From assembly GCA_016699425.1 (NCBI GenBank), contig CP064975.1, positions 526,098-590,097 on the forward strand: a stretch of DNA of 64,000 nucleotides, in the 5' to 3' direction. The position numbers and the translations under genes were made by a program. A model generated the notes under the pieces. That model was not told where the DNA came from and made no database searches. It saw only the letters and a program-made list of their open reading frames with translations. Of this stretch, positions 13,312 to 53,877 are shown piece by piece (position 1 is the first letter of the stretch; each line of letters starts with the position of its first letter). This stretch comes from Candidatus Moraniibacteriota bacterium (lineage in GTDB: Bacteria > Patescibacteriota > Minisyncoccia > Moranbacterales > UBA1568).

Positions 13312-13312
13312 A

Positions 13313-14166: not shown

Positions 14167-14343
14167 AGATCACTTCTGTTTAATATTTTCCATACGATTT
14201 TATTCAGCAAATCCATTCTTCGCAAGCCACTCTGCGGCTTCGCGACTGAGTGACGCATTATTCCCCGTAAAGAGGACAAGCCACTTCCCCCGGCTTCAGT
14301 CTAAGGGTAATACACTTCATAAAAGTAGGCTCCGTGGCATTGC

Positions 14344-14934: not shown

Positions 14935-15003
14935 ATCCTATCGAAAGAGATTATTTCCCATGGCACCCGCCTACCGGCGTGTAGGCTTCTCTTCTGCTTC
15001 ATA

Positions 15004-15345
15004 TTAGAACATTTTTCCTCCTTTTGGAACCTTCTTTGTCGGGCTCAGCAACACCACGTCGCCGTTTTCATCCGGTACTCCCAGGGTAAGTGTTTCCGAC
15101 ACGAAAGGACCAATCTGTTTGGAAGGAAAGTTTACGACGCCGATAACCAACCTCCCGATCAGTTCTTCTTTTTTATAATGTTTCGTGATCTGAACGGAAG
15201 ATTTTTTGATACCGATTTCCTGACCAAAATCTATCGTCAGCTTGTACGCCGGTTTCCTGGCTTCCGGAAAATCCTCTACCTGTACGATTTCCCCTACTCG
15301 TATATCTACTTTTTCAAAATCCTCATAGCTGATCATACTTTTCAC
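15004..15345 (-). CDS. tRNA-binding domain protein (CsaA/Trbp111-like)
   Basis: DIRVGEI…AYKLTIDFG…SSVQI…LIGRLV. OB-fold tRNA-binding signature. Confidence 0.75.
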   Translation of the reverse strand: MKSMISYEDFEKVDIRVGEIVQVEDFPEARKPAYKLTIDFGQEIGIKKSSVQITKHYKKEELIGRLVIGVVNFPSKQIGPFVSETLTLGVPDENGDVVLLSPTKKVPKGGKMF

Positions 15346-15356
15346 TCTTTCAGGAT

Positions 15357-15845
15357 TTATTTATCTACGAATTGACCAGTTTCCTTATTCCTTTTAACCT
15401 CGTTCCAGCCATACACTTTCCCGTTCATTGCAATGTAAATACCCTTAGGTACTGTCTGGACTGCGATAACTGCAGCGCCTACATTAAACATGGCATCCGA
15501 GTCAGAAAACTTTTCTGGTCGCATCGATCCTGTGATTATGATGGTTTTATTTTGTATCTCACTCAGCTTGTCGGCGGTTTCAATCATTGTGTCCGTACCA
15601 TGCGTGATTATGATTTTATCTCCAACAGCATTTCTGCAGGCCTCAAGGATTTTCGCCCGATCATCATCGGTAAGATCCAGACTATCTTTTTTAAGTAACG
15701 AGATAATCTCATGCTCGAAGTTTGGATTTACTTTTTCTAAAATCCGTTTGACTGCCGGTTCGCCAATTTCGAAGGCATACCCTTTCGTCATACGAGGATA
15801 CTCCTTATCAATAGTCCCACCAATTTGGATAAAAGTTATTTTCAT
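15357..15845 (-). CDS. Asparaginase N-terminal-domain protein (short, 162 aa)
   Basis: IGGTID, ITHGTDTM and TGSMRP motifs of the asparaginase/glutaminase N-domain. Confidence 0.6.
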   Translation of the reverse strand: MKITFIQIGGTIDKEYPRMTKGYAFEIGEPAVKRILEKVNPNFEHEIISLLKKDSLDLTDDDRAKILEACRNAVGDKIIITHGTDTMIETADKLSEIQNKTIIITGSMRPEKFSDSDAMFNVGAAVIAVQTVPKGIYIAMNGKVYGWNEVKRNKETGQFVDK

Positions 15846-29847: not shown

Positions 29848-30543
29848 TCATTTCTCACTCTCTCCCAGAGTTCTCAACAAGAATATTGTCTCGGTTCGTA
29901 ACTTTGCGCGTGCCCAATCTTTCTGTGATTCCGTCAGTAATTCCCCGAGTCCATCGAGAACATGCCGATCACTCATTTTCTCTAACTGTTCCACACACAG
30001 CGCCACAAGTCCTGCAAATGACATGCCCGAACGAGATTCAACAATCGCCTTATTAATCGGCCAATGATTTTTCGCAAAGAAATAGACATCAAATATATCT
30101 CGACTCGTTTTACCAACACGTTCATACATCGCCATCAATTTATGCGCAAACATATCTTCTTGTGCCATGACCAGCAGTGAGATACCCAGTATCGTTTTTA
30201 CCTCATACCGGGAACCGAAATTTCTGCGATTGACCTCAATCTTGATATGCTGAGACTGTTTGTTGTATGAAATCACGGAAATGAGATTGAAACGCTTGTT
30301 TCGAGAATCAATCATCACCCCATAATTTCTGGCAATAGTGTTTATTCCCTCGAACACTGACTGTTCTTTAGTTTCATCCAAAAGATCGAAGTCCAAATCG
30401 ACTGAATGACGATTCAATCCATAGAATAACAAAGCGGCTGTACCGCCCTTAAAGCCGAGGAATGGAGCCAGTGTTGTATCGGAGTAAATGTCTTTTAAAA
30501 TCTGTAACAATATACTCCTGTGCTTCGAATAGTCCAATGTCAT
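29848..30543 (-). CDS. AbiEii-type nucleotidyltransferase toxin (second, AT-richer copy)
   Basis: FLGFKGGTAALLFYGLNRHSVDLDFDL…DIFDVYFF. 4-nt ATGA overlap with the upstream AbiEi gene. Confidence 0.75.
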   Translation of the reverse strand: MTLDYSKHRSILLQILKDIYSDTTLAPFLGFKGGTAALLFYGLNRHSVDLDFDLLDETKEQSVFEGINTIARNYGVMIDSRNKRFNLISVISYNKQSQHIKIEVNRRNFGSRYEVKTILGISLLVMAQEDMFAHKLMAMYERVGKTSRDIFDVYFFAKNHWPINKAIVESRSGMSFAGLVALCVEQLEKMSDRHVLDGLGELLTESQKDWARAKLRTETIFLLRTLGESEK

Positions 30544-31166
30544 ACGTTTCCTCGATAATGCTCGAAATATTGTTGTACTTTTTTCTCCATTTGTTTGTTA
30601 TGATATATTGGCAAAATTTCAAATACTTTGTCCCAGTCCAATACGTCCAAATGATCGAAATGATAGTCTTTGCTCACACAAACTCGATCCAGAAAAGCGC
30701 GCTCTTTCGTCGCGACGGAGTACCCTTCCGAATGATTGATACCAGCTGGGTTGCTCAAAATATCTGTTTTCATCCGCACAAAAGAAATTTTTTGTCTATC
30801 GACGACCAGTTCTCTCGAGACATATGACGCGACAAAAATATTCCCATAATACTGAAAATTCACTCCAGTACGAGTCAATACGGTCTCGAAGCTGATGTAG
30901 GATGGGGTATATATCCGAGTCGCCAACTCAAAACGATTATACTCTCTGTCCTTCGCATAGACACCACGATGGATGCGGACCAACTTTCCCGCCTTCGCAT
31001 ATTTACTCAATCGAACACACAGTGCATTTTCTGCTGCTTCACCCCACAACAAAGCAATATCTCTCGTGGTAAAGACCGTTTTCGGAGAGCGAAGCAATGC
31101 TTCCAGGTATTCCCCTTTTTCTGGCTTTCTATTCATATATGCACTGTATATTACCTTAAAACTCAC
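30540..31166 (-). CDS. AbiEi-type antitoxin (second copy)
   Basis: TTRDIALLWGE…GKLVRIHRGVYA. Confidence 0.75.
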   Translation of the reverse strand: MSFKVIYSAYMNRKPEKGEYLEALLRSPKTVFTTRDIALLWGEAAENALCVRLSKYAKAGKLVRIHRGVYAKDREYNRFELATRIYTPSYISFETVLTRTGVNFQYYGNIFVASYVSRELVVDRQKISFVRMKTDILSNPAGINHSEGYSVATKERAFLDRVCVSKDYHFDHLDVLDWDKVFEILPIYHNKQMEKKVQQYFEHYRGNV

Positions 31167-39851: not shown

Positions 39852-40697
39852 CTACAGTCTCGCCGCTTCCGCGTCTGGACTGACGGGTTGAGACTGCGCC
39901 AGCGCCTCGACTCTGAGGATGACGCCACTGACAGCCTCGGGCAACTCGTCGATCAGCGAGCCATCATCATCTCGCGTTTCACGCGGGCGATAGATAATCC
40001 GGACCAGCTGATCAGACCCGAAATACCGGACCGCGTAATCAGCATCAGATTCGGAGTAGACAAAGAGCCTGTGGGTCCACACTATTCGGCCATCGGCTAT
40101 CACCTTGAAGGTGATTTGCCGTCCATAATAAGTGCGTTCAAACGGCGCTGTCTGATCGGTGATCCTCCCTTCGAGGACACGGTTTGCTGCTTCCGTTAGC
40201 TGCTCATACCTGAGCCAATCGGATGTCAGTCGTACACGCCGCTGCCGCCGAAGCCACAGACCGAGCCAGACCTCGGCACCGAGGATGAGAAACCACCAGA
40301 TGTTCAGGAAGCGTTCTTCAGGCGGGAAGAGAGACCACAGACCCATATTGACGAGCAGCGGCACGAGGAACCACCCCCATACCCGCCAAACAATACCTTC
40401 GTAATACCGGACGAACTGCGGCGGCGGGATGATGGCTCCAACAACTGAATGCCGCTGAACCGCATACACCGCACACCAACCACAGAGTGTCGCCGTTTTG
40501 ACGGGTTGAAGCACGTAGACGAAACCGAGAAACACCGAGATGCCGAGAAAAACAGCGGTGTGAAACAACGGAGAAGCCCATACTTCATTCATAGCTAATC
40601 CTTTCAGAAGAAGCGCTAGTGGCGCGAGAGAGTGGGAAAGAACCGTACTGCCAATTATTCCGATAGCAGTGAAAAAGGGATAGGGCACACGCGGCAT
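39852..40697 (-). CDS. Membrane protein with a C-terminal soluble domain (tandem paralog 2), hypothetical
   Basis: IPPPQFVRYYEGIVWRVWGWFLVP…RIIYRPRET. Start set at MPRVPYPFF with AGGGGA upstream. The start is uncertain. Confidence 0.55.
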   Translation of the reverse strand: MPRVPYPFFTAIGIIGSTVLSHSLAPLALLLKGLAMNEVWASPLFHTAVFLGISVFLGFVYVLQPVKTATLCGWCAVYAVQRHSVVGAIIPPPQFVRYYEGIVWRVWGWFLVPLLVNMGLWSLFPPEERFLNIWWFLILGAEVWLGLWLRRQRRVRLTSDWLRYEQLTEAANRVLEGRITDQTAPFERTYYGRQITFKVIADGRIVWTHRLFVYSESDADYAVRYFGSDQLVRIIYRPRETRDDDGSLIDELPEAVSGVILRVEALAQSQPVSPDAEAARL

Positions 40698-40751
40698 GTC
40701 ATATCCCCTTTTCACTACTGGGAAGCCTCCAGCTTCCCACGATACCACCTC

Positions 40752-42101
40752 TTACTCGAGCGCAGACCAGGTACTCGGCCGATTCAAGATGAAACTTTTT
40801 TGATCCGTCTCGTCGCCCACTCCGATGACGGTCACCGTGACGGGCACATCATTGAGTCCCGGTTGCTTCTCGATGAGCAAATCATAGTCAGCCGCCGTGA
40901 TCGTTTTTGGCAAGACATAATTCCAGGTCACAGTCTTGGTCGTTCCGAGCGGCACCTGGACAATCGCCCCAAAGTACTTATGCCCCAGTTCGCTCCCAAA
41001 GACCGCCGGTTTGGCCGCACCAGTGACAGATTCGAGCCAGCTCCCTTCGGGCACATAGATCCGAGAAAACGACTGATAGTCCTTTGTCATGTAGTCCTTT
41101 TCTTTGGCCGTGTGCTCATAGGTCACGACGAGTTTCGCCTTGGGTGCCTCACCCGAGAGATCGATGGTGTAATCCATCTTCCGCCGCATCCGATAATCAG
41201 TCTTGAATGCATTCAGGTTTGAATCGACCGCGAGGAGATAATCCTGTTTCCACTCTTGATTGACCTCGCCGCTCCACCCGGCCGATCGGACCACCTGTTG
41301 CAGTCCTTCGTCCTTGAACGAAATTTGAATGTCTTTTTTGTGAAGGTCATCCAGAACCACTTTGAAAAGTTCATACTTTCCTGACACGGGCAAGGCCTTC
41401 GCCTTTTCGAGGATGATGTCACCGAGGAGATTCATGATGGATTTGCGTTCGCCCCGGGTAATCCCCTGCTTATAAAACGCCTGCTCCACCTGATACTCCA
41501 GATCGAGCACACCCGTCTCAGCATCGAATTCCCCTGGATAGCCGGGCACCTCGACGGGGCCGACCACCGAGAGAAACGACGTCAGGACATTGGTCGTGAT
41601 ACCGATCACCCCGTCGAGTGTCTCTTCGCCTTTACCCATCCGATAAAAATCCTCCGCTACTTTCGCATTCACCGACCAGTCCGGCGAGACATTGGAATCA
41701 CGGAGCTTGAGACTTTTGACCCCAAGTGTCTCGGGCAAAGGATATGGAGCCGGGACCGTGTCCGGAATCCGACCGTCGAAGTTGACCACATCATGCGAGG
41801 CGAAGTCCGTGATCGATCCATCCTTCACCTTCAGGATACCGAACGAGCCGATGAAGCCACCGCCCGGACGAAGCTCCATATTGTTTTGAAACAAGACGAG
41901 GAAGATACGTTCTTCACCTGCGGTATTCATGAACGCTCCAGCGAGTTTGGTCAGAGTCGCGAGATCACCCGTCAGTTCCCCGCCGAACAGTCCGTCGCCC
42001 ACATCGTTCATCCGCGTCGTCCAATAATACCCACCGACGAGGAGGATGACGACGATGACGAGGGTAGTCGTGAAGAAAAGTTTCATCGTGGGTATAAGCA
42101 A
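40752..42101 (-). CDS. Membrane-anchored extracytoplasmic protein resembling the DUF4012 family (polysaccharide-locus associated)
   Basis: N-terminal TM, then ELRPGGGFIGSFG. Assignment is from memory of the family motif. Confidence 0.55.
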   Translation of the reverse strand: MLIPTMKLFFTTTLVIVVILLVGGYYWTTRMNDVGDGLFGGELTGDLATLTKLAGAFMNTAGEERIFLVLFQNNMELRPGGGFIGSFGILKVKDGSITDFASHDVVNFDGRIPDTVPAPYPLPETLGVKSLKLRDSNVSPDWSVNAKVAEDFYRMGKGEETLDGVIGITTNVLTSFLSVVGPVEVPGYPGEFDAETGVLDLEYQVEQAFYKQGITRGERKSIMNLLGDIILEKAKALPVSGKYELFKVVLDDLHKKDIQISFKDEGLQQVVRSAGWSGEVNQEWKQDYLLAVDSNLNAFKTDYRMRRKMDYTIDLSGEAPKAKLVVTYEHTAKEKDYMTKDYQSFSRIYVPEGSWLESVTGAAKPAVFGSELGHKYFGAIVQVPLGTTKTVTWNYVLPKTITAADYDLLIEKQPGLNDVPVTVTVIGVGDETDQKSFILNRPSTWSALE

Positions 42102-42110
42102 TGATGACTT

Positions 42111-43331
42111 CTACATCTTACCACTCAAAAGCTCATTCAGACGGCGACGATAGTCTTCGCGTGTCGGTTCATGCGTTTGTGGTTCGGTCGGCTCAGTCTT
42201 CGCAACCTCCGGAAAGACCGGTTCAGCAGCGGCCGCATTAGCTTCGGCGGTCGCATCGATGTCGGCCTTCATGAGCCGAGCCTGCGCCCCCTGAAGCGGC
42301 GTGATCGGTCCGTCGACAATCGGCAAATTGTCCGGCGCGGCAGCATGCGACACATAACCCGCCGACACGTCTTCGGTCAGTCCAGCCCGTTCGGCTTCAT
42401 AGGACAGCGAGTGATTATCCTCAGGCAATTGGCCATCCTCAACCGTCCATTCTTCAGTTTCTATGGCCGCCTCCTGCTCGATTGCTTCTGCCGCCGCTGT
42501 CTTGGCATATTCCCCCGTTTCCACCGTCTCTTCCGCCTGCCCTTCAGCAGTCGTATCAATCATCTCGGACGGCATGGCTGACATGTCCGATGCAGTCGGT
42601 TCGGGTGCAACGACTGGTTCTGTTACTGATTCTTCCGGCACGAGGGTTTCCGATTCGGCCGGCGAGACCGACTCTTCATGTCCCCAATAGGTCGGCACCC
42701 GTGGCTTGAAAGTCTCGGACGAGATGACGTATTCGCCGTCTCCCGGACGACGGCTGTGCCGCTCCGGGAATACCCACTCGATCAGCCGGTAGATAGAGAA
42801 GAAAAGCGTGGTGAAAAACAGCGCCGTCGCTACTGCCGAGAAAAGGAAGCGCGGCCAGGCGGTGAAGCGCGGGATGATCACGAGATCACCAACGATGCGG
42901 ATATCGATATCGGTTTTCTGATTGTAGTACCGGCTGGCAGTCCGGACGAGCTCCGCGACGATCGCCTGCGTCAGTTGCTCTGCTTCATCACTGTCGTCAC
43001 CGTGCGACGAGACATGGATGACATCACTTTGGCCGACAGAACGGACCTCGGTCCGGTCCTGCCAGATCGCCCGACGTTCCGCGGGCGTCTTGCCGGCGAA
43101 CGGACTCTCGAGGGTATCGGTTGCCGCGTACACTGCAAGCGCAAATGACGTCTCGCGTGACAGAGCCACGAGATTGGCCGCGGCGCCGGTGGCAGAAACT
43201 GTCTTGGGCAAAATGAACAGCGACATCTCACCCGAATAGCCGCGCAGTTCGTCCATCCAGAACAGTCCCGCTGCGAGGAGGAGCGGGACGAAGACAGCCC
43301 AGAATGATCGACGGAAGAGATTAGACAACAT
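42111..43331 (-). CDS. Polysaccharide co-polymerase (Wzz/chain-length-determinant-like) with an acidic C-terminal tail
   Basis: Two TM helices flank a ~190-aa extracytoplasmic domain, followed by an E/T/A-rich tail. Start set at MLSNLFRR. The tracked ORF extends to 43472. Confidence 0.5.
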   Translation of the reverse strand: MLSNLFRRSFWAVFVPLLLAAGLFWMDELRGYSGEMSLFILPKTVSATGAAANLVALSRETSFALAVYAATDTLESPFAGKTPAERRAIWQDRTEVRSVGQSDVIHVSSHGDDSDEAEQLTQAIVAELVRTASRYYNQKTDIDIRIVGDLVIIPRFTAWPRFLFSAVATALFFTTLFFSIYRLIEWVFPERHSRRPGDGEYVISSETFKPRVPTYWGHEESVSPAESETLVPEESVTEPVVAPEPTASDMSAMPSEMIDTTAEGQAEETVETGEYAKTAAAEAIEQEAAIETEEWTVEDGQLPEDNHSLSYEAERAGLTEDVSAGYVSHAAAPDNLPIVDGPITPLQGAQARLMKADIDATAEANAAAAEPVFPEVAKTEPTEPQTHEPTREDYRRRLNELLSGKM

Positions 43332-44490
43332 GTTTGGTAATCCAGTGGTAACCGCTCGGCTGAGCATTGATCGTCTCTTGATAGACACCCGCCGTCTGGC
43401 GAGCGATGGCGTCCCAGCTGAAGGCCGCATCAATACGCGTTCGAGCCGACTCGCCGAGCCGCTTGGCCTCATCGGGCCGATTGATATAGTGCGCCATCTC
43501 CTGCTTCAGCGCTTCGACATCTTTCACGGGGAAAACCGCTCCGTACCCGCCGCGAATCACTTCGAGATTGGGAGCGATATCGGACACGACCACCGGAAGT
43601 CCATAAGCCATTGCTTCGAGCAAGGCCATCGACATCCCTTCATTTTCGGATGGCTGGACGAAGAGACCGGCATGCGTGAAGAGTGCGGCCAACCGCTTCC
43701 CTCGCAGTTCGCCGATGAAGAGGATGTTCTTCCGTCCGGCGGCCATCGTCCGCAGATACTTCTCATAGTCCGGCGTATTGGCTGGGGCACCGACGATGAC
43801 AAGTTTGTAGTTATTTGGCAATTTATTGGTATCCTCGAGCTCCATGAATGCCTTGATGAGAAAATGGATACCTTTGTGACCGACGAGACGCGAGACGGAC
43901 AAGGCATAGCGACCCGGTCGCAGCCCCCACTCCAAGAGGACATCCGGAGAGGCAACCATCTCCACCTCTGCACCGTTCGGGATATACACCGCATCGCAAT
44001 GGTAAAAATCCTTGGCGTACTGAGCGAGCTCTTGGCTCACCGTGATCGTCCGTTCGGGGACTTTGCAGGTGAAGAACTCCGCCGCCTTCAGAAAGTTCTG
44101 TGCGAAGAATCCCCACTTCTTGTGGAAGTAGTCACGGCTGTGGAAGGTCGAGATGACGCGTGTCTTCGGTTTCAGAATGCGCGGAATGATCGAGAGGATA
44201 GACGGTCCGATCGAGTGGTAATGAATGACATCGTAATCCTGAAACAGCGCGTGCACGGTCGCAAGGAAAGAATGCGTGATCGCGTCAAGGTGCTTGGTCG
44301 AGATAGACGGCAGCGAGATAAGCCGGACGCCCCGAAACGAGCTCAGCTCTTTGGGGGTATAGTTGGGGCGTGTATAGACGGTCACCTCATGCCCAATCTG
44401 CACCAGACGCGCGGAAAGCTTTTCGACATGCTTTTCCACGCCACCCGACCGCGTTGGGATGCCCTTTTGACCGATGAAAGCGATTTTCAT
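43321..44490 (-). CDS. GT4-family glycosyltransferase
   Basis: GGVEKHV… N-terminal motif and EX7E motif EGMSMALLEAMAYGLP. Confidence 0.85.
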   Translation of the reverse strand: MKIAFIGQKGIPTRSGGVEKHVEKLSARLVQIGHEVTVYTRPNYTPKELSSFRGVRLISLPSISTKHLDAITHSFLATVHALFQDYDVIHYHSIGPSILSIIPRILKPKTRVISTFHSRDYFHKKWGFFAQNFLKAAEFFTCKVPERTITVSQELAQYAKDFYHCDAVYIPNGAEVEMVASPDVLLEWGLRPGRYALSVSRLVGHKGIHFLIKAFMELEDTNKLPNNYKLVIVGAPANTPDYEKYLRTMAAGRKNILFIGELRGKRLAALFTHAGLFVQPSENEGMSMALLEAMAYGLPVVVSDIAPNLEVIRGGYGAVFPVKDVEALKQEMAHYINRPDEAKRLGESARTRIDAAFSWDAIARQTAGVYQETINAQPSGYHWITKHVV

Positions 44491-44733
44491 AGCGGTTCTA
44501 AACCAAAGGATTTAACGGTGTACAGTAGCAAAGAATGAGTCTTCTGTCAAGCCTATTTTCGACTAGAGCGACGAGTGGGGAAAATGGGCGATCAACTCAC
44601 TTGAAATCCTCATTTTGAGGAAGCCCCTGTTCCGTCGACGGATGCCTGCTGGAGCCAGTGGCTTCTGGGTGAGAAAAAAGCATAAAACTGGCTACTCTGT
44701 GCCAGTTCCATGCGACCCACAAGACACTCCTCA

Positions 44734-45669
44734 TTACCGAATCCGAAGTACCGATGAGATGGTGCCAAGACGATTGCCTTCATAACGATTGGTCGCGGTG
44801 AGCGTGAGTCCGGAGAAATCACCGTTTCCCGCCCGTACCACACGCGCGATCGCATACCGACCATTGTCGATGAACGTAGCCTTCTTGAATCCGATCGAAC
44901 CGGCCGAGCCATATGAGTTCACCTCCACACCTTCGCGGCCATTCCGGCGGATGGAATTGTCCTTGCTCCAGAATGAGGCACCGTCGATGGTCAGTTTGAA
45001 ACCCGAACCCCGGTTTTCGAGCACACGGTTATCCTCGAACCAGGCCTTCACTTCAGCGATGAGATCGACGCCATCACCATTGCCAGTGATATCGGTCCCG
45101 GTGACGATGAGGCTACGCTTGTCGGAATAGATACCGGCCAGTCGATTGTTCTTGATGACTGACTGATCGATAATAACCTGCTCTTTTTTGTCACGAGAAC
45201 CACGGTCGATGTGGATGCCGTCGCGGGTGCTCCCCTTGACGACAGAACGCACGATTTTGGCCCGGGCATGCTCCACGACGCGCACGCCATGACGCCCACC
45301 GACGATGGTGAGCTTATTGATCTCGGTATCATCCTTCATGGTGATGACCGGCTGGTCCGGATTGTCGGCCTTGATAACGACATCGTCCATGTTCTTGCCA
45401 CCGACGAGTTTGACATCCTTGGGCAGAGTGAGGTTTTCCTTGTACGTTCCCTTAGCGACATACACGGTTGTCGAGCCCTTGGCCTGCTTCAACGCCTTGG
45501 AAATAGTGCGATATGGATGGCTGTAGGAACCGTCCTGATTGCCCTTATTGTCCTCGTCGACGTAGATCGACTTGGAACCCCCGAGCACGACGACGGGGCC
45601 GAGGATCAGCGCAAAGAGCACCACGGCGAGGAGGCCATTCTTCCACTGGAGAGCGAGTGAGCTGTTCAT
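44734..45669 (-). CDS. Secreted right-handed parallel beta-helix repeat protein
   Basis: Signal-anchor. Repeated …NRLAGIYS…VTGTDITGNGDGVDL… PbH1-like repeats. Confidence 0.65.
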   Translation of the reverse strand: MNSSLALQWKNGLLAVVLFALILGPVVVLGGSKSIYVDEDNKGNQDGSYSHPYRTISKALKQAKGSTTVYVAKGTYKENLTLPKDVKLVGGKNMDDVVIKADNPDQPVITMKDDTEINKLTIVGGRHGVRVVEHARAKIVRSVVKGSTRDGIHIDRGSRDKKEQVIIDQSVIKNNRLAGIYSDKRSLIVTGTDITGNGDGVDLIAEVKAWFEDNRVLENRGSGFKLTIDGASFWSKDNSIRRNGREGVEVNSYGSAGSIGFKKATFIDNGRYAIARVVRAGNGDFSGLTLTATNRYEGNRLGTISSVLRIR

Positions 45670-45761
45670 AGTTGCGTCATTGAGCGAATAAAGCGGTAAC
45701 CCACGATGCTACCAGAAGACGCCAGTTTTGTCAATTCCCCGCCGGTCGGCTACTATGAAGG

Positions 45762-47897
45762 ATGAAAACAACACACAACATGTCCCTCCAGAGCCTGTTT
45801 GCCCCCCGGTCCATCGCCGTCATCGGGGCCTCGACGACTCCAGGAAGCGTCGGGAACGATGTCGCCAAAAATCTCATTGAGAGTGATTACTCCGGTGATG
45901 TGTATCTCATCAATCCGAAGACCGATACCCTCTTGGGCCGGGTGTGTTATCCGTCCATCGATGCTGTCCCTGGATCCATCGACCTGGCGATCATCATCGT
46001 CCCAGCAAAAATCGTCCCCGCTGTACTGCGCGAAGCGGGCGAACGACTCGTCCGTGCCGCCATCATCATCAGCGCCGGATTCAAAGAAAGTGGTCCTGTC
46101 GGTCAGGCCCTCGAGTCCGAAATCGTCACCATCGCCGAGGAATACAATATCGCGGTCCTCGGGCCGAACTGCCTCGGCTTCATCAATCCCCGACATTTCC
46201 TCAACGCTTCTTTCGCCTCGTCCATCCCGACAGCTGGATCGATTGCGTTTTTCTCCCAGAGCGGCGCCCTCACCAGCGCCTTCCTCGACCTCACCAAGGG
46301 TGTCTTCGGATTCTCGCTCTTCGCCTCGATCGGGAACAAGGCTGTCATCGATGAACCCGCCCTCCTCGAATACTTGTTCAAAGATGAGGCCACTCGGACC
46401 ATCGGTCTGTACACCGAAAACCTGTCCGATGCCGCCCGCTTCATCACCCTGGGCCGGGACAATCTCCGTTCGAAGCAGGCCAAGCCGATCGTCGCCCTAA
46501 AAGCTGGGACGACTGCGGCTGGGACCAGCGCATCGAGCTCACACACGGGTGCTGTCGCGGGGAGCGATGCCGCCTACGATGCGCTCTTCCGCCAGGCGCG
46601 GATATTTCGGGCAGCGAGTTTCGAAGCCCTCACCGAACTCCTCCTCGTCCTCGATCAGAACCCTGTCCCACGCGGCAAACGGATCGCGATCGTGACCAAT
46701 GCTGGTGGACTCGGTGTCCTCGCGACCGATGCCAGCATCAAGGCCGGACTCGAACTCGCAACACTCGCGGATGGGACCGTCGAAAAGCTCCAGGCGGTGT
46801 TGCCACCGGCGGCCAATACACATAATCCCATTGACGTGCTCGGTGATGCGCTCGCGGACCGCTATACCAAGGCACTCAATATCGTCGCGGCCGATGCGGG
46901 TGTCGACCTCCTCCTCGTCATCCTCACACCTCAGACGATGACCGAAGCAGAGCGCACGGCTGAGGCAATTGTGAAACTCCGTAAAGCATTCCCCCAACTC
47001 CCGATCACCACAGTCTTTTCGGGTGATCGGCTCGTCTTTCCTGGACAAGAAGTGCTCCGAAAGGCAGGTATCCCAAATCTCCTCTACCCCGAGTCTGGTG
47101 CCCGAGCACTCGGAGCGCTCGCTGAGTTCGGAGAGTGGTGTCGCTCACTTCGGACTGAGTCTCCGACAATCCTGGCAGTCGACACAGATCGGGCCCGCCA
47201 GGTACTCGCCGAGGCCCGCGCGGCCGGACAGACGCAGCTCGGCGAAGGATCAGCCGCTCGATTTCTGTCTGCCTATGGTTTTCCGTTTCTGAGAAGTGCG
47301 CTCGTCACATCGCATGATACAGCGGACGCTTTTGCCCGAGACATGGGTGCTCCCATCGCGCTGAAAATCGCCTCGCCGGACATCATCCACAAGTCCGATG
47401 TCGGCGGTGTCATCCTCAACGTGAAACCCGAAGAAGCGGCGGTCTCATACGAACACCTCCTCGCCACCGTCCGGATCCATGCGCCCCACGCGCGAATCGA
47501 TGGTGTCATGGCCGTTGAGATGGCCGCAGCCGGCGGACGTGAGCTCCTCTTGGGGCTGAAGCGTGAACCCGGCCTGGGTACGCTCGTCGTCGTGGGCCTC
47601 GGCGGTATCCATGTCGAGACCTTCCGGGATATCGCCATGCGCTTCGCTCCGCTCCTCCCGTCGGACATCGATGCGATGTTGGATGAGCTCCAGTGTCTCC
47701 CGCTCCTCCTCGGTACCCGCGGTGAAACCGGCATTGATCTCGGCCAACTGAAGGTATACCTCGCACTTCTGTCGCAAATCGCGGTCGACTTCCCCGAAAT
47801 CGTTGAGCTCGATATCAATCCGCTCCTCGCCTTCCCTGATGGCGCAGCCTTCCGCATCCTCGATGCCCGGCTCCGGCTCAAAAGTGATAGTAATTAA
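45762..47897 (+). CDS. Acetate--CoA ligase (ADP-forming), fused alpha/beta (NDP-forming acyl-CoA synthetase)
   Basis: N-terminal CoA-binding domain (SIAVIGASTTPGSVG…INPK), succinyl-CoA-synthetase-like flavodoxin domains and a C-terminal ATP-grasp. Confidence 0.85.
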   Translation: MKTTHNMSLQSLFAPRSIAVIGASTTPGSVGNDVAKNLIESDYSGDVYLINPKTDTLLGRVCYPSIDAVPGSIDLAIIIVPAKIVPAVLREAGERLVRAAIIISAGFKESGPVGQALESEIVTIAEEYNIAVLGPNCLGFINPRHFLNASFASSIPTAGSIAFFSQSGALTSAFLDLTKGVFGFSLFASIGNKAVIDEPALLEYLFKDEATRTIGLYTENLSDAARFITLGRDNLRSKQAKPIVALKAGTTAAGTSASSSHTGAVAGSDAAYDALFRQARIFRAASFEALTELLLVLDQNPVPRGKRIAIVTNAGGLGVLATDASIKAGLELATLADGTVEKLQAVLPPAANTHNPIDVLGDALADRYTKALNIVAADAGVDLLLVILTPQTMTEAERTAEAIVKLRKAFPQLPITTVFSGDRLVFPGQEVLRKAGIPNLLYPESGARALGALAEFGEWCRSLRTESPTILAVDTDRARQVLAEARAAGQTQLGEGSAARFLSAYGFPFLRSALVTSHDTADAFARDMGAPIALKIASPDIIHKSDVGGVILNVKPEEAAVSYEHLLATVRIHAPHARIDGVMAVEMAAAGGRELLLGLKREPGLGTLVVVGLGGIHVETFRDIAMRFAPLLPSDIDAMLDELQCLPLLLGTRGETGIDLGQLKVYLALLSQIAVDFPEIVELDINPLLAFPDGAAFRILDARLRLKSDSN

Positions 47898-47973
47898 AGA
47901 AAAAGCGCCCAGGATCCATTCGGACCCCAGGCACTCAAGACCTCGTTTGTTTTGAAATCAAGTCCAGACTCCC

Positions 47974-49337
47974 TCAATAGACCGTGATGGGACTACTCAC
48001 CGTGCAATTGTTGGCTTCATTTGACTCTGTGACCGCACTTTGATAATCAGCGCAACCCTTGAAGTAGTACGTGCCACGGGCACTGATCTTCATGCCGCCA
48101 TCGTACTGCTCGCGTTCTTCACAACCGATGCAGAGTTTGGAAGCCTCGGTCCCATCATCGGTAATGTACGTCCAGGTACCGCCCGTGCCCGGACCCATGA
48201 ACCAGTACGAGCTCCGGATTGCTGCTGGTGAGGGAGCGGTGCCGACGTTTTTCACGTACATCGCTGGATAGAACTTGCTCCCCGCCTTGATCGACGCTGA
48301 CCCACCCGCTGGACCAACCGCTCTCACGATGAAGTCGGGTTGGGGTGGTGGTTTGGGCGCCAACGTCACCGTCAGGCTGGCTGAGTTGTTGGTCTCATCT
48401 GTTTCCGGTTGTGTTCCCTGGTAGTCGGTGAAAAAAGAGAGGGTGCAGGTTCCGACCACATTCGGCAATTGAACCGGGGTGAGGGTCTCTTCCCAAGCAC
48501 TCGCACCAGCCGTGAGGCTGCTGGCCATGGTGCCATCGTCAGTGAGCAGTATGTTCGATCCCCCATTGCAGGAAACCGTGTAGGCACTGCGGATGTCAGC
48601 TGTGGCATTGACCGTGCCTTGATTGGTGATGGTGGCGCCGAGACGGACGAAGTCGCCAGCGTAGGTAGGGGCTTGGAGGAGGGTGAAGCCGCTCGGGGTG
48701 AGGTCGACATCGGGGACGTTGACTGTCCCTTCGACGACTTCAATCACTGCTTCGGTACTGCAGTTGTTGGACTCGTGCTTTTCGTCGTGCTCGCCGCCGT
48801 TGTTGTGATCGTCCTGGGGATGATCGATACAGGCGACAATATTGTAAATGCCGGGTTCCGTGATCCACTCCCGGATGACCGTATTCTTGGTCTCGGTGTG
48901 GGTATCGCCCGGTTTCAGGTTGTCGCACTGAGTCGTCGTACTGTCGAGCCTCCGCCAAGCACCGTCTCCTGAGTGGGGATCCTCCTTGTAGCCCCGGGAG
49001 AGGTAGAAGTGACTGGTGATGGTGGTGGGTTCGCCGTCCTTGATGGGACAGGTACCTTCTCCGATGTTTTCAAACTGGGCTTTGGTGTTGAAGGATTCGT
49101 TCAGGCCATACTTGTACGTCTCCGTGCCCCAGGGGGTGGTGAGCCAGGTGCGTTTGGTGATGAAATCGGGGGGGACGAGGGTGGGTGGCGCTACGCTTTG
49201 GATGGGATAGCCCTGCCCCGTACCGTAGACGGCTTTCGACGCGTTCCCGGCGACGACCGTACCCGTGTAGACATTGATGGTGTTGATGGTCCAATTCGTG
49301 CTCATCGCTTGCGCAATTTCCTGAGCACTGGCTGTCT
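47974..49337 (-). pseudogene. C-terminal ~450-aa beta-rich domain of an IS-disrupted secreted M23-peptidase fusion gene
   Basis: The tracked ORF 47974..49305 (MSTNWTINT…) has no signal peptide and no RBS. Its frame is open upstream through 49328 and joins in-frame, across IS copy 1, with the M23 segment (…GETA-S-AQEIAQA-MSTNW…). Confidence 0.7.
49329..49337. repeat. 9-bp target-site duplication TGGCTGTCT (left) of IS copy 1
   Basis: An identical 9-mer sits at 50541..50549, immediately outside the inverted repeats. Confidence 0.8.
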
Positions 49338-50540
49338 GATACCGTTACCTTTTCAGTTGATGGAAAGTGTTGTTCTTGTTAGACTAGAGCCTCAAACCGG
49401 CTGTAAAGTTGACTTTAAGCCTTAAATTTCATTCAGCATGTCAAAAAAATGGTCACGTCACTGTCCCCGCTGCAGCAGTCGTGAGACGGTGAAGAATGGC
49501 TCCCAAGGCTACAGCCATCACTACCTGTGTCGTGCTTGTGAACATTCTTTTTCTCGTTACTTCGGGCATGATCCGAGACTGCTGTGGATCGAGCATATTG
49601 ATGGGGTACCGTTTCGTAAATTAGGAGATGAATATGGTCTCTCGGGAAAACAAGCCTTCGTGAGAGTTACAAGAGAATTAGCACAACTTCCTTCCAATGA
49701 CGCTCTGACGCAAACCCTCTGTGACCCGAGACGCTTCTCGGGCATCCTTGTCATGGATGGGAAGTATGTGGCGGTCAAAGGCTTTGCGAGAAAGATTCCT
49801 TTTCTCTACGGCATTGATTACTTGACCCACGATATTCCCTTCGGGGCTTTGTATACAGCGGAAGATGAGGTGTCCTTCTCACGTTTCTTCCATCAAGTGA
49901 AGCAACTTGGCTATGATCTTCAGATCGTGGTCGCCGATGACCGCTCTGGCCTGAAAAAGGCTCTCCTGAAGGTTTTTCCGTCGGCTCGGCTGCAGCTCTG
50001 CCACAACCACTACCTGGAGAATATCCGGGTGGCTTTACGGGTGCGGAGTGAAGAGCGATACCGGCCCTTCTTTTACGCTCTCAAGGAGAGCGTGTTTGGA
50101 GAACGAGAGGATGTGACGAACGCCATTCGATCTTTTGCCGCGAGCATCAAGAGAGAGAAACGTCTGCTCAAAACATCGTAAGTGAGATAGCGTACCGGCA
50201 GGAGGAACTCTTCAATTACTTGCTGCTGCCAGGCTGTCCCAACAACACCAATCTCATTGAACTCTACAATTCCCATCTCAATGGGAGGCTGAAGACGATC
50301 AAGGGTTTTCAGAGTTTTGCTTCGGCTCAGTGTTGGTTGAATGCGTGGATGATACGGAGGAGAACCAAGCCTTTTACAGATTGTGAAGCTAAATTTAAAT
50401 ATTTGAACGGTTACCCTTCACTCTCTTTGAGTATCAAAAAACAGGCTCGCTGGCCTGAGACATTAGTAAAACTAGGCGTAGAAGCAGTAAAACTTTTTGA
50501 AAAAAAGCGCCCTACTATCAACTGAAAAGGTAACGGTAAC
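49338..50540 (+). mobile_element. IS1-family insertion sequence, copy 1 (1203 bp)
   Basis: 24-bp terminal inverted repeats (GATACCGTTACCTTTTCAGTTGAT / GTTACCGTTACCTTTTCAGTTGAT on the reverse strand). The ORF 49438..50181 encodes an InsA-like zinc finger CPRCSSRETVKNGSQGYSHHYLCRACEHSF plus an InsB-like DDE region. It is frameshifted at A4 (50170-50173) from its C-terminal part, 50220..50525. Confidence 0.85.
49438..50525 (+). pseudogene. IS1-family transposase, copy 1, split by a single-base deletion in an A-run
   Basis: LLKTS* here versus LLKNIVSEIAYRQEELFNYLLLPGCPNN… in copy 2, which has A5. Confidence 0.75.
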
Positions 50541-51323
50541 TGGCTGTCTCCCCCAACATCTTGTGGATGAATCGCATGAAGTTCCACCAGAGACTGCCCT
50601 CCGGGAGTACTTCACCCGGATCTTCAGCTGCAGCTACGGCATTGAACATGGGATGAAGGTCATCACAGATCTCTCTTCCAACTTCGAACATCCACGGGAT
50701 ACCCGCTCGAACGACTGGATCTGATAGGCCCTTGTACCACATCGTCGCAGTTTCACATGCGACAGTCTTGGGCGACCAACACACATGACCCTGACAGGCA
50801 ACCTGCTTTTCTGTTGAGGGATTGAAGGCGAAGTGCGTTTGGATGAAGGCGACTGGGTTGGTGAAAGTGTTGGTGCAAGTACTATTTCCCTCGCACGGAG
50901 TCCTCCATTCTGAGTTTGCCATCATGCCCCAACCACTTTTCGCCATAGTGCGAAACGGTCCGTCATGAATGGCGAAATGCAAATGATCACCATAATCCCA
51001 GTGACCAATCTTTCCGATCGACACACCACCTTCTACTTCGGCGTACTTAGCTGGAAGGCTGCTACACTTGAGATGACCATACACAGCAGAAAACACCATG
51101 CTTTCGGTAGTTCTGTGCTCGATAACCAGGGCACAATTACCTACACCCCACTTTTTACCATCACCATCATCGTAGCTAATGTAGACTACTTTCCCATCCG
51201 CAATGGCATATGCATCTTTTCCAAGACCATGCATCATATCAACACCAACGTGGTAGAAGCCAGCAAAGTAGCTACCATATTTCGGTGCCCCGCCAGCTAA
51301 CCAACCTGCCCCAGGCTGAAAAT
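50541..51323 (-). pseudogene. Central M23 metallopeptidase segment of the IS-disrupted fusion gene, lying between the two IS copies
   Basis: HxxxD (YHVGVD) and HxH (GDHLHFAIHDG) M23 motifs. The tracked ORF 50518..51237 reads through the target duplication into the IS inverted repeat before stopping. Confidence 0.75.
51315..51323. repeat. 9-bp target-site duplication GCTGAAAAT (left) of IS copy 2
   Basis: An identical 9-mer sits at 52526..52534. Confidence 0.8.
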
Positions 51324-52525
51324 GATACCGTTACCTTTTCAGTTGATGGAAAGTGTTGTTCTTGTTAGACTAGAGCCTCAAACCGGCTGTAAAGTTGACT
51401 TTAAGCCTTAAATTTCATTCAGCATGTCAAAAAAAATGGTCACGTCACTGTCCCCGCTGCAGCAGTCGTGAGACGGTGAAGAATGGCTCCCAAGGCTACA
51501 GCCATCACTACCTGTGTCGTGCTTGTGAACATTCTTTTTCTCGTTACTTCGGGCATGATCCGAGACTGCTGTGGATCGAGCATATTGATGGGGTACCGTT
51601 TCGTAAATTAGGAGATGAATATGGTCTCTCGGGAAAACAAGCCTTCGTGAGAGTTACAAGAGAATTAGCACAACTTCCTTCCAATGACGCTCTGACGCAA
51701 ACCCTCTGTGACCCGAGACGCTTCTCGGGCATCCTTGTCATGGATGGGAAGTATGTGGCGGTCAAAGGCTTTGCGAGAAAGATTCCTTTTCTCTACGGCA
51801 TTGATTACTTGACCCACGATATTCCCTTCGGGGCTTTGTATACAGCGGAAGATGAGGTGTCCTTCTCACGTTTCTTCCATCAAGTGAAGCAACTTGGCTA
51901 TGATCTTCAGATCGTGGTCGCCGATGACCGCTCTGGCCTGAAAAAGGCTCTCCTGAAGGTTTTTCCGTCGGCTCGGCTGCAGCTCTGCCACAACCACTAC
52001 CTGGAGAATATCCGGGTGGCTTTACGGGTGCGGAGTGCAGAGCGAGACCGGCCCTTCTTTTACGCTCTCAAGGAGAGCGTGTTTGAGAACGAGAGGATGT
52101 GACGAACGCCATTCGATCTTTGCCGCGAGCATCAAGAGAGAGAAACGTCTGCTCAAAAACATCGTAAGTGAGATAGCGTACCGGCAGGAGGAACTCTTCA
52201 ATTACTTGCTGCTGCCAGGCTGTCCCAACAACACCAATCTCATTGAACTCTACAATTCCCATCTCAATGGGAGGCTGAAGACGATCAAGGGTTTTCAGAG
52301 TTTTGCTTCGGCTCAGTGTTGGTTGAATGCGTGGATGATACGGAGGAGAACCAAGCCTTTTACAGATTGTGAAGCTAAATTTAAATATTTGAACGGTTAC
52401 CCTTCACTCTCTTTGAGTATCAAAAACAGGCTCGCTGGCCTGAGACATTAGTAAAACTAGGCGTAGAAGCAGTAAAACTTTTTGAAAAAAAGCGCCCTAC
52501 TATCAACTGAAAAGGTAACGGTAAC
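51324..52525 (+). mobile_element. IS1-family insertion sequence, copy 2 (1202 bp)
   Basis: Same inverted repeats and ~99% identity to copy 1. The transposase is broken by two other 1-nt homopolymer deletions (GG>G near 52084, TTTT>TTT near 52121). It also carries E>A and Y>D substitutions. Confidence 0.85.
51424..52451 (+). pseudogene. IS1-family transposase, copy 2, disrupted by two frameshifts
   Basis: Tracked ORFs 51395..52102 and 52035..52451 overlap in different frames. Confidence 0.75.
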
Positions 52526-52643
52526 GCTGAAAATCTGCTTTGCCAGTCGGATAGAAGAACCCGGTTTCCGTCTGATCGAAGGCATATGCCGCATTCGCGG
52601 ATACGCACAGAACCAGGAGTATGAACCTCATTACTGCCTGCAT
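52526..52643 (-). pseudogene. 5' end (signal peptide, 39 codons) of the IS-disrupted M23 fusion gene
   Basis: GGAGAG RBS, then ATG at 52643: MQAVMRFILLVLCVSANAAYAFDQTETGFFYPTGKADFQ. It runs directly into the IS copy 2 target duplication. Confidence 0.65.
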
Positions 52644-52759
52644 GCTACTCTCCTTTCAGTGAGAGTTGAGTTGTGAAGGGACTGCGGGCGTAGAGATGAA
52701 AAATACCATCCTACAGAATTCACACATTGGGAAATATATGAATTCTGTAGAGCGCTATA

Positions 52760-53398
52760 CTACTTCAGCGTTCTAAAAGACAAAAGAAAACCGTTTAATA
52801 CATCTCTTTTCACTCCGATAGAACTTGAAATATACCAGCTTTGGGGAATATTTGATATATACCCTACATTATATTTATCGATAACTATAACTACGCTCTG
52901 TTCATCAACTGTTGAACGATAGATCTTAGATTTTTCCATTTTATCCAGCTCCAGAACCTCTCTTAATTCACCAATGTTCAAGCCATCGTTATCAGAAAGA
53001 TTAACTGTGATCACGATCTTATTCTTTAACCTCCCTGCGTAATAAGCTTCTTTTTGAATCTTTTCTAAACAAGCAACACTACGTTTTGAATTTGGATCAA
53101 GCGCAATACCCCCACAGAACCAATCTTTCGGAATCTTCACTTCAAATCCAACCTCCTCATTCCGATACGTCTGCCAATCGGAAGTATCAACGGGTGTGAA
53201 GGCATATTCACCATCAATGAGATCTTTGATACCCTCGGTCCCTTCAGTTTGTGTCGGCTGTTCAGCCTGAATAGGAGCTTCTTTCACCACCGGCTGATTG
53301 ACAGTCATGGGTGGGCGGTTTTGTAGGTACCAGAAAGCACCGGCGATAACGAGCAGGGCGATGAGGGTAATGGCGAGTAGGAGGGGTTTCTGATTCAT
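52760..53398 (-). CDS. Membrane-anchored hypothetical protein, AT-rich gene
   Basis: Start at MNQKPLLLAITLIALLVIAGAFW. GC content is ~38%, well below the surrounding sequence. Confidence 0.5.
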   Translation of the reverse strand: MNQKPLLLAITLIALLVIAGAFWYLQNRPPMTVNQPVVKEAPIQAEQPTQTEGTEGIKDLIDGEYAFTPVDTSDWQTYRNEEVGFEVKIPKDWFCGGIALDPNSKRSVACLEKIQKEAYYAGRLKNKIVITVNLSDNDGLNIGELREVLELDKMEKSKIYRSTVDEQSVVIVIDKYNVGYISNIPQSWYISSSIGVKRDVLNGFLLSFRTLK

Positions 53399-53877
53399 AG
53401 ATTTGAAGATTGAAAGTAGCAAAAATTGACTGAGACTGTCAAGCCCATGATACTCTGGGCACGAAATATGGTCGAGAGAATGAAAAACGGATCCCGAAGA
53501 GCAATGCCCTCGAGACCCTTCCTGCTTCCTCCTTTCTGCTGGCGACCTCGACCTTAGTAAGGTGTCGCCGCCTCACGCGCCTCGGCCGCCCGAAGTTCGG
53601 CATCGTGGGACAGTGTCCAAATTATCCCCACGATACATCCCACCAAGACCACGACGAGGATCAGTCCCGTGGCGACCATCGCCCACCGCTCCAGCCGACG
53701 AGCCGACCAAGATCTTCTCGGTTTATATTTCCTATCTCTCACGATTCCCCCCTTGGGAAAAAAGTTGCATCGAAAAACTAATTTCCAGTGCCTGAAATGA
53801 TAGCCGATTTTCACACCAAAGTCAATCCCACATTCGCGGCCTGCCAGCGGACGGTAAGAAAAGTAAAGAGATTATCA

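Follow-up and report, generated by a model that had tools for sequence, protein, structure and literature searches.

A gene for a predicted secreted M23–CARDB hydrolase in a Moranbacteria genome, very probably divided into three pieces by two insertions of an IS256-type element

Insertion sequences of the IS256 family, as described in ISfinder, are 1.2–1.5 kb long, end in inverted repeats of about 20–30 bp, and generate target duplications of 8–9 bp; IS256 inactivates genes for surface factors, such as the ica operon of Staphylococcus epidermidis. In the 64-kb stretch of DNA from a Candidatus Moraniibacteriota bacterium analyzed here (hereafter, the window), one IS256-type element has very probably inserted twice, independently, into a gene encoding a predicted 748-aa secreted M23–CARDB hydrolase, splitting it into three pieces. 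The element resembles the family in its length of 1.2 kb (1203 and 1202 bp in the two copies), its imperfect ends of ~25 bp (24 of 26 terminal bases matching), the 9-bp duplication at both copies, and the single ORF found in intact relatives, whereas it departs from the family in its low NCBIfam scores, its host belonging to the CPR, and the broken transposase frames of both window copies.

The two IS copies, both on the plus strand, occupy positions 49338–50540 (copy 1) and 51324–52525 (copy 2) and are 99.4% identical, with 2 substitutions and 5 single-base homopolymer indels between them. Their inverted ends (GATACCGTTACCTTTTCAGTTGAT... and ...ATCAACTGAAAAGGTAACGGTAAC) include a 22-nt perfect core that is observed four times in the window, with an expectation of zero. 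Copy 1 is bracketed by the 9-bp duplication TGGCTGTCT (49329–49337 and 50541–50549) and copy 2 by GCTGAAAAT (51315–51323 and 52526–52534); these distinct duplications agree with the two independent, same-orientation transpositions put forward in the preliminary description. Both visible copies sit in the hydrolase gene, and no further copy was found in the remaining 60 kb of the window. As in a composite transposon, two copies of the same family flank a 783-bp passenger (the M23 module, in the unit 49338–52525). This possibility was rejected, however, since the outer flanks TGGCTGTCT and GCTGAAAAT differ and each IS has its own duplication pair; the passenger is, moreover, collinear with the host gene, and the IS–M23–IS unit therefore formed in place instead of arriving as a composite. 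The transposase ORF of copy 1 (49438–50181) ends early, at 247 aa, with an A4 run in place of the A5 run of copy 2 and of a third, public copy (L004), and its remainder continues in another frame (50169–50525). The frame of copy 2 is broken by several 1-nt indels, so that both window copies are frameshifted relative to the public one, by either real decay or uncorrected homopolymer errors. A programmed −1 frameshift of the IS1 type was also considered and discarded: the break in copy 1, at CTCAAAACA, has no slippery heptamer and is absent from the two other copies.

The preliminary description had termed the copies IS1-like, an assignment that is not borne out by the transposase, which is of the Mutator/IS256 type with 43.9 bits for Pfam Transposase_mut (PF00872; cutoff, 21) and, slightly below the cutoff of 27.6, 27.0 bits for MULE. 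The top NCBIfam matches were NF033543 IS256 (E = 6e-16) and NF048019 IS256_Zn_var (E = 1e-12), neither of which reached the equivalog cutoff of 150 (58.3 and 47.9 bits, respectively). Because these scores lie far under the cutoffs, the predicted protein places the element in a distant branch of the IS256/Mutator superfamily and not as a close IS256 equivalog. Visual inspection of the motifs VMDGKY, VADDRSG, and NLIELYNSHLNGRLK gave candidate D-D-E residues (D107, D167/168, and E275). Features shared with the IS1 family are the 9-bp target duplication and an N-terminal CxxC...CxxC zinc ribbon, and the likeness to InsA is limited to this ribbon (transposase residues 8–40), which gave 28.5 bits with the IS1/IS1595 Zn domain (NF050000; cutoff, 28) and 17.5 bits with the Pfam InsA ribbon (cutoff, 26.1). 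No InsB-type DDE domain was detected with NF033558 IS1, which covers only residues 9–40 (21 bits; cutoff, 100), or with Pfam DDE_Tnp_IS1. Also in contrast to the IS1 family, in which InsA and InsB′ are joined by a −1 frameshift at A6C, intact relatives of the element (P0121, P0127, and L003) have one continuous transposase ORF of 345–360 aa.

The interrupted gene runs on the minus strand. Piece 1 (52526–52643) comprises the start codon, the signal peptide, and residues 1–39 (MQAVMRFILLVLCVSANAAYAFDQTETGFFYPTGKADFQ), including a duplication copy, and is preceded by a Shine–Dalgarno-like GGAGAG (52648–52653, minus strand), read directly from the sequence 4 nt ahead of the start ATG at 52643. Piece 2 (50541–51323; residues ~37–301) carries the M23 peptidase domain and a Cys-rich region, with a duplication copy at each end, and piece 3 (47974–49337; residues ~296–748) carries a helical linker, three CARDB-like β-sandwich domains, and the stop codon. 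The two copies thus lie after codon 39 and after codon 298. In-silico excision of 49338–50549 and 51324–52534, each containing one IS and one duplication copy, joins the pieces into a minus-strand ORF of 748 aa with zero stop codons, identical to that derived in the preliminary description, of which the 443-aa ORF (47974–49305, beginning at an internal Met of piece 3) and the GGAGAG ribosome-binding site were likewise found. The two insertions have turned the gene into a pseudogene: at most a 46-aa peptide can come from piece 1, the catalytic piece 2 is left without a start signal or signal peptide, and the CARDB-bearing piece 3 lacks a signal peptide. Return to a working gene would require two precise excisions.

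A survey of relatives yielded 151 homologues of the reconstructed protein, more than 20 of them full-length (coverage of 91–100% of the query). Those encoded by an intact single gene are 700–785 aa long and up to 64% identical, the named ones coming from Candidatus Moranbacteria MAGs. They align without interruption across both junctions (for example, P0003, '...GEIASAQEIVQTVQTTWTINT...', and P0011, '...GFFYPIGKDDYAPGAGWLAK...'), and the N-terminus of piece 1 aligns with the intact P0002, P0003, P0011, and P0017. Because of these alignments, the three pieces are regarded as one gene for a secreted M23 fusion protein, as had been claimed; a syntenic intact gene is also present in the sister strain described below, and no intact orthologue arranged as three separate genes was found among the relatives. 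That the pieces instead represent three genes, one for a small secreted peptide, one for an M23 protein, and one for a CARDB protein standing alone, joined in frame by coincidence, has practically no probability, even though CARDB-only proteins of ~430–480 aa do exist in relatives (P0016, P0025, P0029, and P0032): these carry their own lipoprotein-type signal peptides, unlike the 443-aa ORF of the window, and conserved sequence spans both junctions in the full-length proteins. Every break, moreover, coincides with an exact IS end and a target duplication, and the separate-gene reading was ruled out on these grounds. Searches of public data turned up no intact N-terminal module nearly identical (>70%) to that of the window.

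The reconstructed protein is predicted to consist of a Sec signal peptide, an M23 zinc metallopeptidase domain, the Cys-rich region, the helical linker, and three CARDB-type domains. The domain and structure predictions proposed in the preliminary description placed both domain types above the Pfam cutoffs, with 36.3 bits for M23 (PF01551; cutoff, 28.7) and 56.7 bits in 2 stretches for CARDB (PF07705; cutoff, 22.7), and gave an AlphaFold model with a mean pLDDT of 82, in which helices continue through junction 1. The HxxxD motif corresponds to His61–Asp65 (YHVGVD, residues 60–65), the middle His to His120, and the HxH motif to His150–His152 (HLHFAIH, residues 150–156); Asp65, His120, His150, and His152 do not vary among 39 homologues. 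Residues ~50–162 are matched by a solved M23 chain (9gy1_A; E = 0.0027; query from residue 22, aligned query 29–141). The CARDB part is modeled as all-β with pLDDT above 90 (residues 500–748, 80–96) and has Foldseek matches only to tandem Ig-like proteins. Its three repeats of ~126 aa (378-nt period) end in an E-x-N-E/N-x-NN-like motif at residues 483, 606, and 732. The HxxxD, middle His, and HxH motifs, the signal peptide, and the presence of C-terminal non-catalytic domains are common to M23 endopeptidases of the LytM/lysostaphin type, whereas the latter domains are here three CARDB-like Ig-fold domains, with a Cys-rich insert, rather than SH3b or LysM. The 748-aa product is hence a putative secreted peptidoglycan hydrolase, whose CARDB-type β-sandwich domains presumably bind a surface.

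In a sister strain (L001) whose flanking 9 kb is 97% identical, the corresponding position holds a single intact gene, next to the ADP-forming acyl-CoA synthetase gene that also adjoins the locus in the window (98% aa identity). The DNA of piece 3 is 97% identical to that strain up to window position 49185, where the identity stops inside the gene. In place of the window-type N-terminal module the sister strain carries another M23 head, with the break-points of the exchange near codons 28 and 345; ~29 relic codons at its positions 8984–9070 still preserve the window-type start and signal peptide, with the Shine–Dalgarno stretch AAAGGAGAGTAGCATG retained at 8969–8986. The M23 part has a GC content of 0.50, against 0.58 for the CARDB part and 0.41 for the upstream gene. 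These features mark the locus as a variable site of lower GC that is prone to recombination, at which the sister strain has swapped its entire N-terminal catalytic cassette. In relatives, a contig or MAG carries several paralogues, among them lipoprotein versions that lack a head and others headed by CHAP, the same C-terminal CARDB module being paired with a different M23 head, a CHAP head, or no head. The family appears to evolve rapidly and as a mosaic, in the manner often seen for surface proteins under diversifying pressure. No paralogue of the hydrolase gene is present within the 64-kb window, and redundancy in this genome is inferred from the relatives.

Apart from the insertions, the 2.2 kb of gene pieces contain no stops or frameshifts, and comparison of the CARDB part with the sister strain gave a pS of 0.081 and a pN of 0.0049 (ratio, 0.06; neighboring gene, 0.24). 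Because of this lack of other lesions and the low ratio, both insertions look recent. The transposases are frameshifted in both copies; decay after insertion fits uneasily with a very recent date, the alternative being sequencing errors in repeats.

It is very unlikely that the arrangement is an assembly artefact, in which cells with the IS at one site and cells with the IS at the other were merged or the IS copies were mis-polished. The five homopolymer indels between the copies, set beside 9 kb of unique sequence that differs from the sister strain by only 6 gap events (at most 1 inside a homopolymer run), follow the pattern expected where repeats escape short-read polishing, and short-read assemblies from the same run series break at the IS (contigs of 1.3 kb and 2.6 kb). 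However, all junctions are clean with a perfect 9-bp duplication, the intervening piece is unique sequence that stays in frame and has intact genes as homologues, and the sites are only ~2 kb apart, a distance that single long reads would cover and over which a merged chimera would be unusual for assemblers. For the occurrence of two insertions in one gene, the preliminary description had suggested selection for loss or a hot spot. For a random second insertion, the expected chance of hitting the same 2.2-kb gene is ~3.5% within the window and ~0.2% in a 1-Mb genome, values that make pure chance uncomfortable; some bias (selection, target preference, or local reinsertion) has therefore probably contributed. 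Insertional bias, by target-site or DNA-structure preference, a lower-GC region, or local hopping near a resident copy, can be entertained tentatively: the copies have the same orientation, lie 783 bp apart in a lower-GC segment (0.50, versus 0.58–0.60 in the flanks), and are the only ones in the window. On the other hand, no clear motif emerges from a comparison of the two 9-bp targets and their flanks, and each copy has private mutations relative to the public one, so that one did not simply arise recently from the other; we know of no documented case of local hopping by IS256-type elements.

Adaptive loss, in which knocking out a secreted lytic or adhesive enzyme was favored and two independent events were retained, is unlikely. 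Its benefits might be to spare the host cell damage or to escape recognition via a surface protein, and besides the small random expectation, the reduction of the window-type N-terminal module to a relic in the sister strain and the diversifying appearance of the family would be in keeping with it. Nevertheless, one insertion already abolishes the gene, and selection therefore cannot explain the second, which adds no benefit; the sister strain swapped in another head, so that function was not lost, and the pN/pS ratio indicates that the CARDB part was strongly constrained until recently. Since the gene is one of a multi-copy, mosaic family and its locus is prone to recombination, we infer that two insertions in a redundant copy were tolerated and not selected for; such tolerated loss is no less likely than selection or a hot spot.

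In textbook terms, the case is a clear but ordinary IS-made pseudogene. Its annotation should change from three fragment ORFs and two broken transposase genes to one disrupted gene and two IS256-family copies, not IS1. The case shows that a small CPR genome has IS256-type elements that are, or were until recently, active, and it marks a site at which IS insertions coincide with cassette exchange between strains. The M23/CHAP–CARDB family could plausibly serve these presumed episymbionts as a tool for attaching to or opening the walls of other cells, a role also speculated for M23 genes of other Patescibacteria (PMC9530719, PMC11393006). A highly speculative reading, to which we give very little weight, takes the IS–[M23 head]–IS unit (49338–52525) as a snapshot of IS-mediated cassette shuffling. 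If it were true, recombination between the direct copies would delete the head, the unit mobilized in trans could reach another tail, and IS256-type elements would drive domain swapping in a CPR surface-hydrolase family. This reading draws on the position of the same-orientation copies, which nearly coincide with the ends of the catalytic head (codons 40–298), almost the segment exchanged with the sister strain, and on the pairing of the CARDB tail with an M23 head, a CHAP head, or no head in the wider family.

The locus further points to a multi-copy, mosaic family of secreted M23/CHAP–CARDB hydrolases in Moranbacteria, upstream of which a partner gene is conserved. Directly upstream of the hydrolase gene lies an intact ORF for a predicted membrane-anchored protein of 220 aa (52760–53422, minus strand) with no Pfam match. 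Judged from gene neighborhoods, this ORF is a conserved partner of the hydrolase family in relatives, its homologues adjoining the hydrolase gene just upstream and on the same strand in at least 14 related loci.

The M23-CARDB hydrolase gene of this Moranbacteria genome (minus strand, 47974-52643) is doubly disrupted by insertion sequences, and the disruption is real and cleanly resolved. The two 1.2-kb elements, copy 1 (49338-50540) and copy 2 (51324-52525), both on the plus strand, are 99.4% identical, and each starts with GATACCGTTACCTTTTCAGTTGAT and ends with ATCAACTGAAAAGGTAACGGTAAC. In the window, the perfect inverted core of 22 nt was found four times, always at one of the four IS ends (0 expected from shuffling). 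Copy 1 has TGGCTGTCT at either flank and copy 2 has GCTGAAAAT, as target duplications. In-silico deletion of 49338-50549 and 51324-52534, each comprising an IS and one copy of its duplication, gave the empty sites …CCTGAGCACTGGCTGTCTCCCCCAAC… and …CTGCCCCAGGCTGAAAATCTGCTTTGCC…, and a minus-strand ORF of 748 aa that runs from an ATG at 52643 to a stop at 47974-47976 with no internal stops; a Shine-Dalgarno-like motif, GGAGAG, is located 4 nt 5′ of the ATG. The IS boundaries, the two distinct duplications, the in-frame 748-aa reconstruction, and the GGAGAG motif, all claimed in the preliminary description, were thereby reproduced. Arrival of IS-M23-IS as a composite transposon was ruled out, because the outer duplications are unlike each other.

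A search of 5.8 billion proteins with the rebuilt sequence returned 151 homologues, more than 20 of which are full length (700-785 aa; coverage, 91-100%; identity, 38-64%), with Candidatus Moranbacteria/Moraniibacteriota metagenome-assembled genomes (MAGs) as their named sources; a scan of species-representative genomes (26 loci) gave the same taxonomic picture. The alignments are unbroken both at the copy-2 junction (...GFFYPTGKADFQ|PGAGWLAGG... in the window, ...GFFYPIGKDDYAPGAGWLAKD... in the homologue P0011) and at the copy-1 junction (...MLGETAS|AQEIAQAMSTNWTINTIN... in the window, ...LLGEIASAQEIVQTVQTTWTINTVN... in the homologue P0003). Relatives consisting of the CARDB module only (about 430-480 aa) have their own lipoprotein-type signal peptides, whereas the 443-aa ORF of the window is without one. 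The alternative that the three segments belong to separate genes is therefore refuted, and the proposal of one interrupted gene holds, with more than 20 full-length relatives spanning both junctions. An exact look-up of the 443-aa and 239-aa fragment ORFs found neither on record.

In the rebuilt protein, Peptidase_M23 (residues 60-157) and CARDB both score above the Pfam cutoffs. The M23 signature residues are found in YHVGVD (60-65), VYGHL (117-121), and HLHFAIH (150-156), among which Asp65, His120, His150, and His152 do not vary across 39 aligned homologues; by sequence, the nearest protein of solved structure is the M23 peptidase 9gy1_A. The C-terminal 400 residues comprise three repeats of ~126 aa, each closed by a CARDB-like E-x-N-x-NN motif, in agreement with the 378-nt period of the DNA (family D7). 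An AlphaFold model of the 748-aa product, computed from the 39-sequence alignment (mean pLDDT, 82), shows a β-rich M23 head, a Cys-rich middle, and three confident β-sandwich domains, with the modeled helices 281-293 and 299-308 running across the copy-1 junction. A Foldseek search of the whole model against the PDB retrieved just generic tandem Ig-domain proteins (integrins and complement), and nothing for the Cys-rich middle.

The label "IS1-like" given to the elements in the preliminary description is wrong. For profile searches, the copy-1 transposase was repaired by adding one A at 50169, as in copy 2 and a third copy, to give 362 aa. The repaired protein matched Pfam Transposase_mut (43.9 bits; cutoff, 21), with MULE just missed, and its top NCBIfam matches were "IS256 family transposase" and "IS256 family transposase, variant Zn-binding type", both well under the equivalog cutoffs. 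The likeness to the IS1 family is limited to an N-terminal CxxC...CxxC zinc ribbon (residues 8-40), and the IS1 catalytic (InsB) domain was not detected with Pfam or NCBIfam profiles. All 1376 transposase homologues have Mutator-family Pfam labels; most are on contigs of 1.2-1.5 kb, typical of collapsed repeats, and P0121 (99% identity), P0127, and the element of the metagenome locus L003 each have a single continuous transposase ORF. The size of the element, its 24/26-bp inverted ends, and the 9-bp duplication are also consistent with the ISfinder descriptions of the IS256 family.

Both copies were compared with an independent, 99%-identical copy in a Logan assembly of SRR11674000 (L004). Copy 1 alone lacks one A at each of two sites (A8 to A7 at 49442 and A5 to A4 at 50169), and the changes private to copy 2 are two substitutions and three 1-nt deletions; hence, neither was simply copied afresh from the other. 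Owing to the A4 change, the copy-1 transposase stops at 247 aa, ahead of NLIELYNSHLNGRLK, a putative catalytic-glutamate motif, and the copy-2 frame is interrupted at several places. A programmed frameshift or transcriptional slippage in copy 1 was rejected, the A-run being just 4 nt without a slippery heptamer, and the two other copies and all relatives being in frame. Homopolymer indels (at 49442, 50098, 50133, 50169, and 50436 in copy 1 and the equivalent positions of copy 2) account for five of the seven copy differences, whereas at most one of six gap events lies in a homopolymer run in the unique 9 kb compared with the sister-strain locus L001; the differences may thus be leftover sequencing errors in repeats missed by polishing. 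The transposase gene also starts on an A-run, ATGTC(A)7TGG in copy 1 (49436-49445) and (A)8 in copy 2 (51422-51432) and L004 (about 173-181). The ATG is in frame with the zinc ribbon only with A7, and A8 needs a start at an upstream TTG; this difference may come from sequencing noise or from a switch prone to mutation or slippage.

The best match to the rebuilt protein, P0001, is encoded on contig JBATAY010000031 of MAG GCA_049662085.1 (locus L001), where it is followed by a convergent gene for an ADP-forming acyl-CoA synthetase with 98% amino acid identity to that of the window. Across 9 kb (window 40138-49185) the two strains have 97.3% DNA identity, which ends sharply at 49185, within the hydrolase gene and ~150 nt from the copy-1 site. 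On the gene-upstream side of this breakpoint, L001 has a markedly different M23 head, and L001 8984-9070 retains, as a relic, a window-type gene start with ribosome-binding site, start codon, and signal peptide (MQAVMRFILVLVALSAFAPTSYALDQTET; including LDQTET). Based on the different head and the window-type relic, the N-terminal catalytic cassette has been swapped between closely related strains. Across the wider family, the CARDB tail occurs behind M23, behind CHAP (PF05257), or by itself, and single CARDB repeats are mosaic too, as seen in P0025, near-identical in the first repeat only. The GC contents likewise support a mosaic locus: the CARDB part is at 0.58 and the M23 part at 0.50, compared with 0.41 for the upstream gene and 0.60 for the flanking synthetase gene. 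No IS-end relics were found at the L001 breakpoints. Following the relic, L001 contains unrelated DNA, an additional copy of the partner gene, and then the different head. Just 3′ of the hydrolase stop, a 62-bp stretch (window 47896-47957) is 98% identical to L001 679-740, downstream of a CHAP-type paralogue, and may be a shared terminator or a recombination footprint. Many MAGs with this gene family bear the title "uncultured Bdellovibrionales bacterium" (L007-L010, L012, L014-L018, L021, and L022), and single matches were in bins labeled Accumulibacter, Undibacterium, Methyloglobulus, and Electronema; such names probably do not reflect the true hosts but are placeholders or result from mis-binning of CPR contigs.

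The partner ORF, located directly upstream (52760-53422, minus strand), is intact and encodes a protein of 220 aa with an N-terminal membrane anchor and no Pfam match. A homologue lies just upstream of an M23/CHAP-CARDB gene, on the same strand, at no fewer than 14 Moranbacteria loci (L005-L007, L009-L013, L017, L018, L020, L023, L024, and L028), ~0.5-1.8 kb 5′ of the hydrolase match; by this gene order, the hydrolase family forms a conserved two-gene unit with the partner, whose role, speculatively, may be in immunity, anchoring, or export. For other Patescibacteria, a role of M23 peptidases in lysing host walls has been put forward, as speculation only (PMC9530719, PMC11393006).

Apart from the IS insertions, no stop or frameshift interrupts the 2.2 kb of gene pieces. 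Comparison of the window with L001 over 400 common CARDB codons gave 22.5 synonymous and 4.5 non-synonymous differences (pS, 0.081; pN, 0.0049; ratio, 0.06; 0.24 in the neighboring gene), and almost all of the divergence seems to have arisen under purifying selection. From the low ratio and the intact pieces, we infer that the loss of function was recent relative to the strain split. Knock-out by an IS in this manner is a well-known kind of event, including the classic inactivation of surface-factor genes by IS256-type elements.

As to why one gene was hit twice, the probability of a random second insertion into the same 2.25-kb gene is ~3.5% for the window and ~0.2% for a 1-Mb genome, and therefore some bias is likely. 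A regional bias behind the second hit, the hot spot of the preliminary description, is a live alternative, although no obvious motif is common to both target sequences. Adaptive loss of the hydrolase, also suggested there, is weaker, since selection for loss alone does not account for a second insertion after the gene had been killed. We favor tolerated or neutral IS accumulation in a dispensable, recombination-prone gene: once killed by the first IS, the gene would offer a safe landing site for the second, the family is multi-copy in relatives, and the locus is variable, with a lower GC content. The IS pair, in direct orientation, brackets the catalytic head nearly exactly (codons 40-298; IS-[M23]-IS). 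Because the bracketed head is the segment swapped between strains, such pairs might be thought to promote cassette deletion or shuffling; the support is a positional coincidence, and we regard this idea as very improbable.

The 22-nt IS end had no match in species-representative genomes, a set that does not include the source genome. In JGI metagenomes it was found just in L003, containing a 64% amino acid-identical relative, and in L002, a solo end, and a second site for this IS was not found there; among the other fetched loci, its core was present only in the IS-derived L002, L003, and L004. The 24-nt end at L002 1978-2001 (a metagenome contig) is solitary and perfectly conserved, lacks a transposase or IS body in its vicinity, and may be a solo end or a deletion remnant. 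The L004 flanks show no target duplication, and this 1.3-kb contig is probably a collapsed repeat; it is therefore uninformative on target choice. Short-read public contigs break at the IS, and L031, a 2.6-kb Logan contig with the synthetase gene, ends short of the hydrolase gene. The 99%-identical IS copy (L004, SRR11674000) and the exact neighboring acyl-CoA synthetase protein (L031, SRR11674038) come from one SRA series, which probably represents the habitat of the window organism. No papers were found on Moranbacteria with insertion sequences. Elsewhere in the window, an AbiEii toxin/AbiEi antitoxin pair (29848-31166, minus strand; type IV toxin-antitoxin or abortive infection) occupies a patch of 41% GC against the window mean of 54%. 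A second low-GC patch (12835-15845; 42-46%) adjoins secA (15864-18569) and holds small nucleotide-metabolism genes (NUDIX, HD-domain 5′-deoxynucleotidase-like, and asparaginase N-terminal domain).
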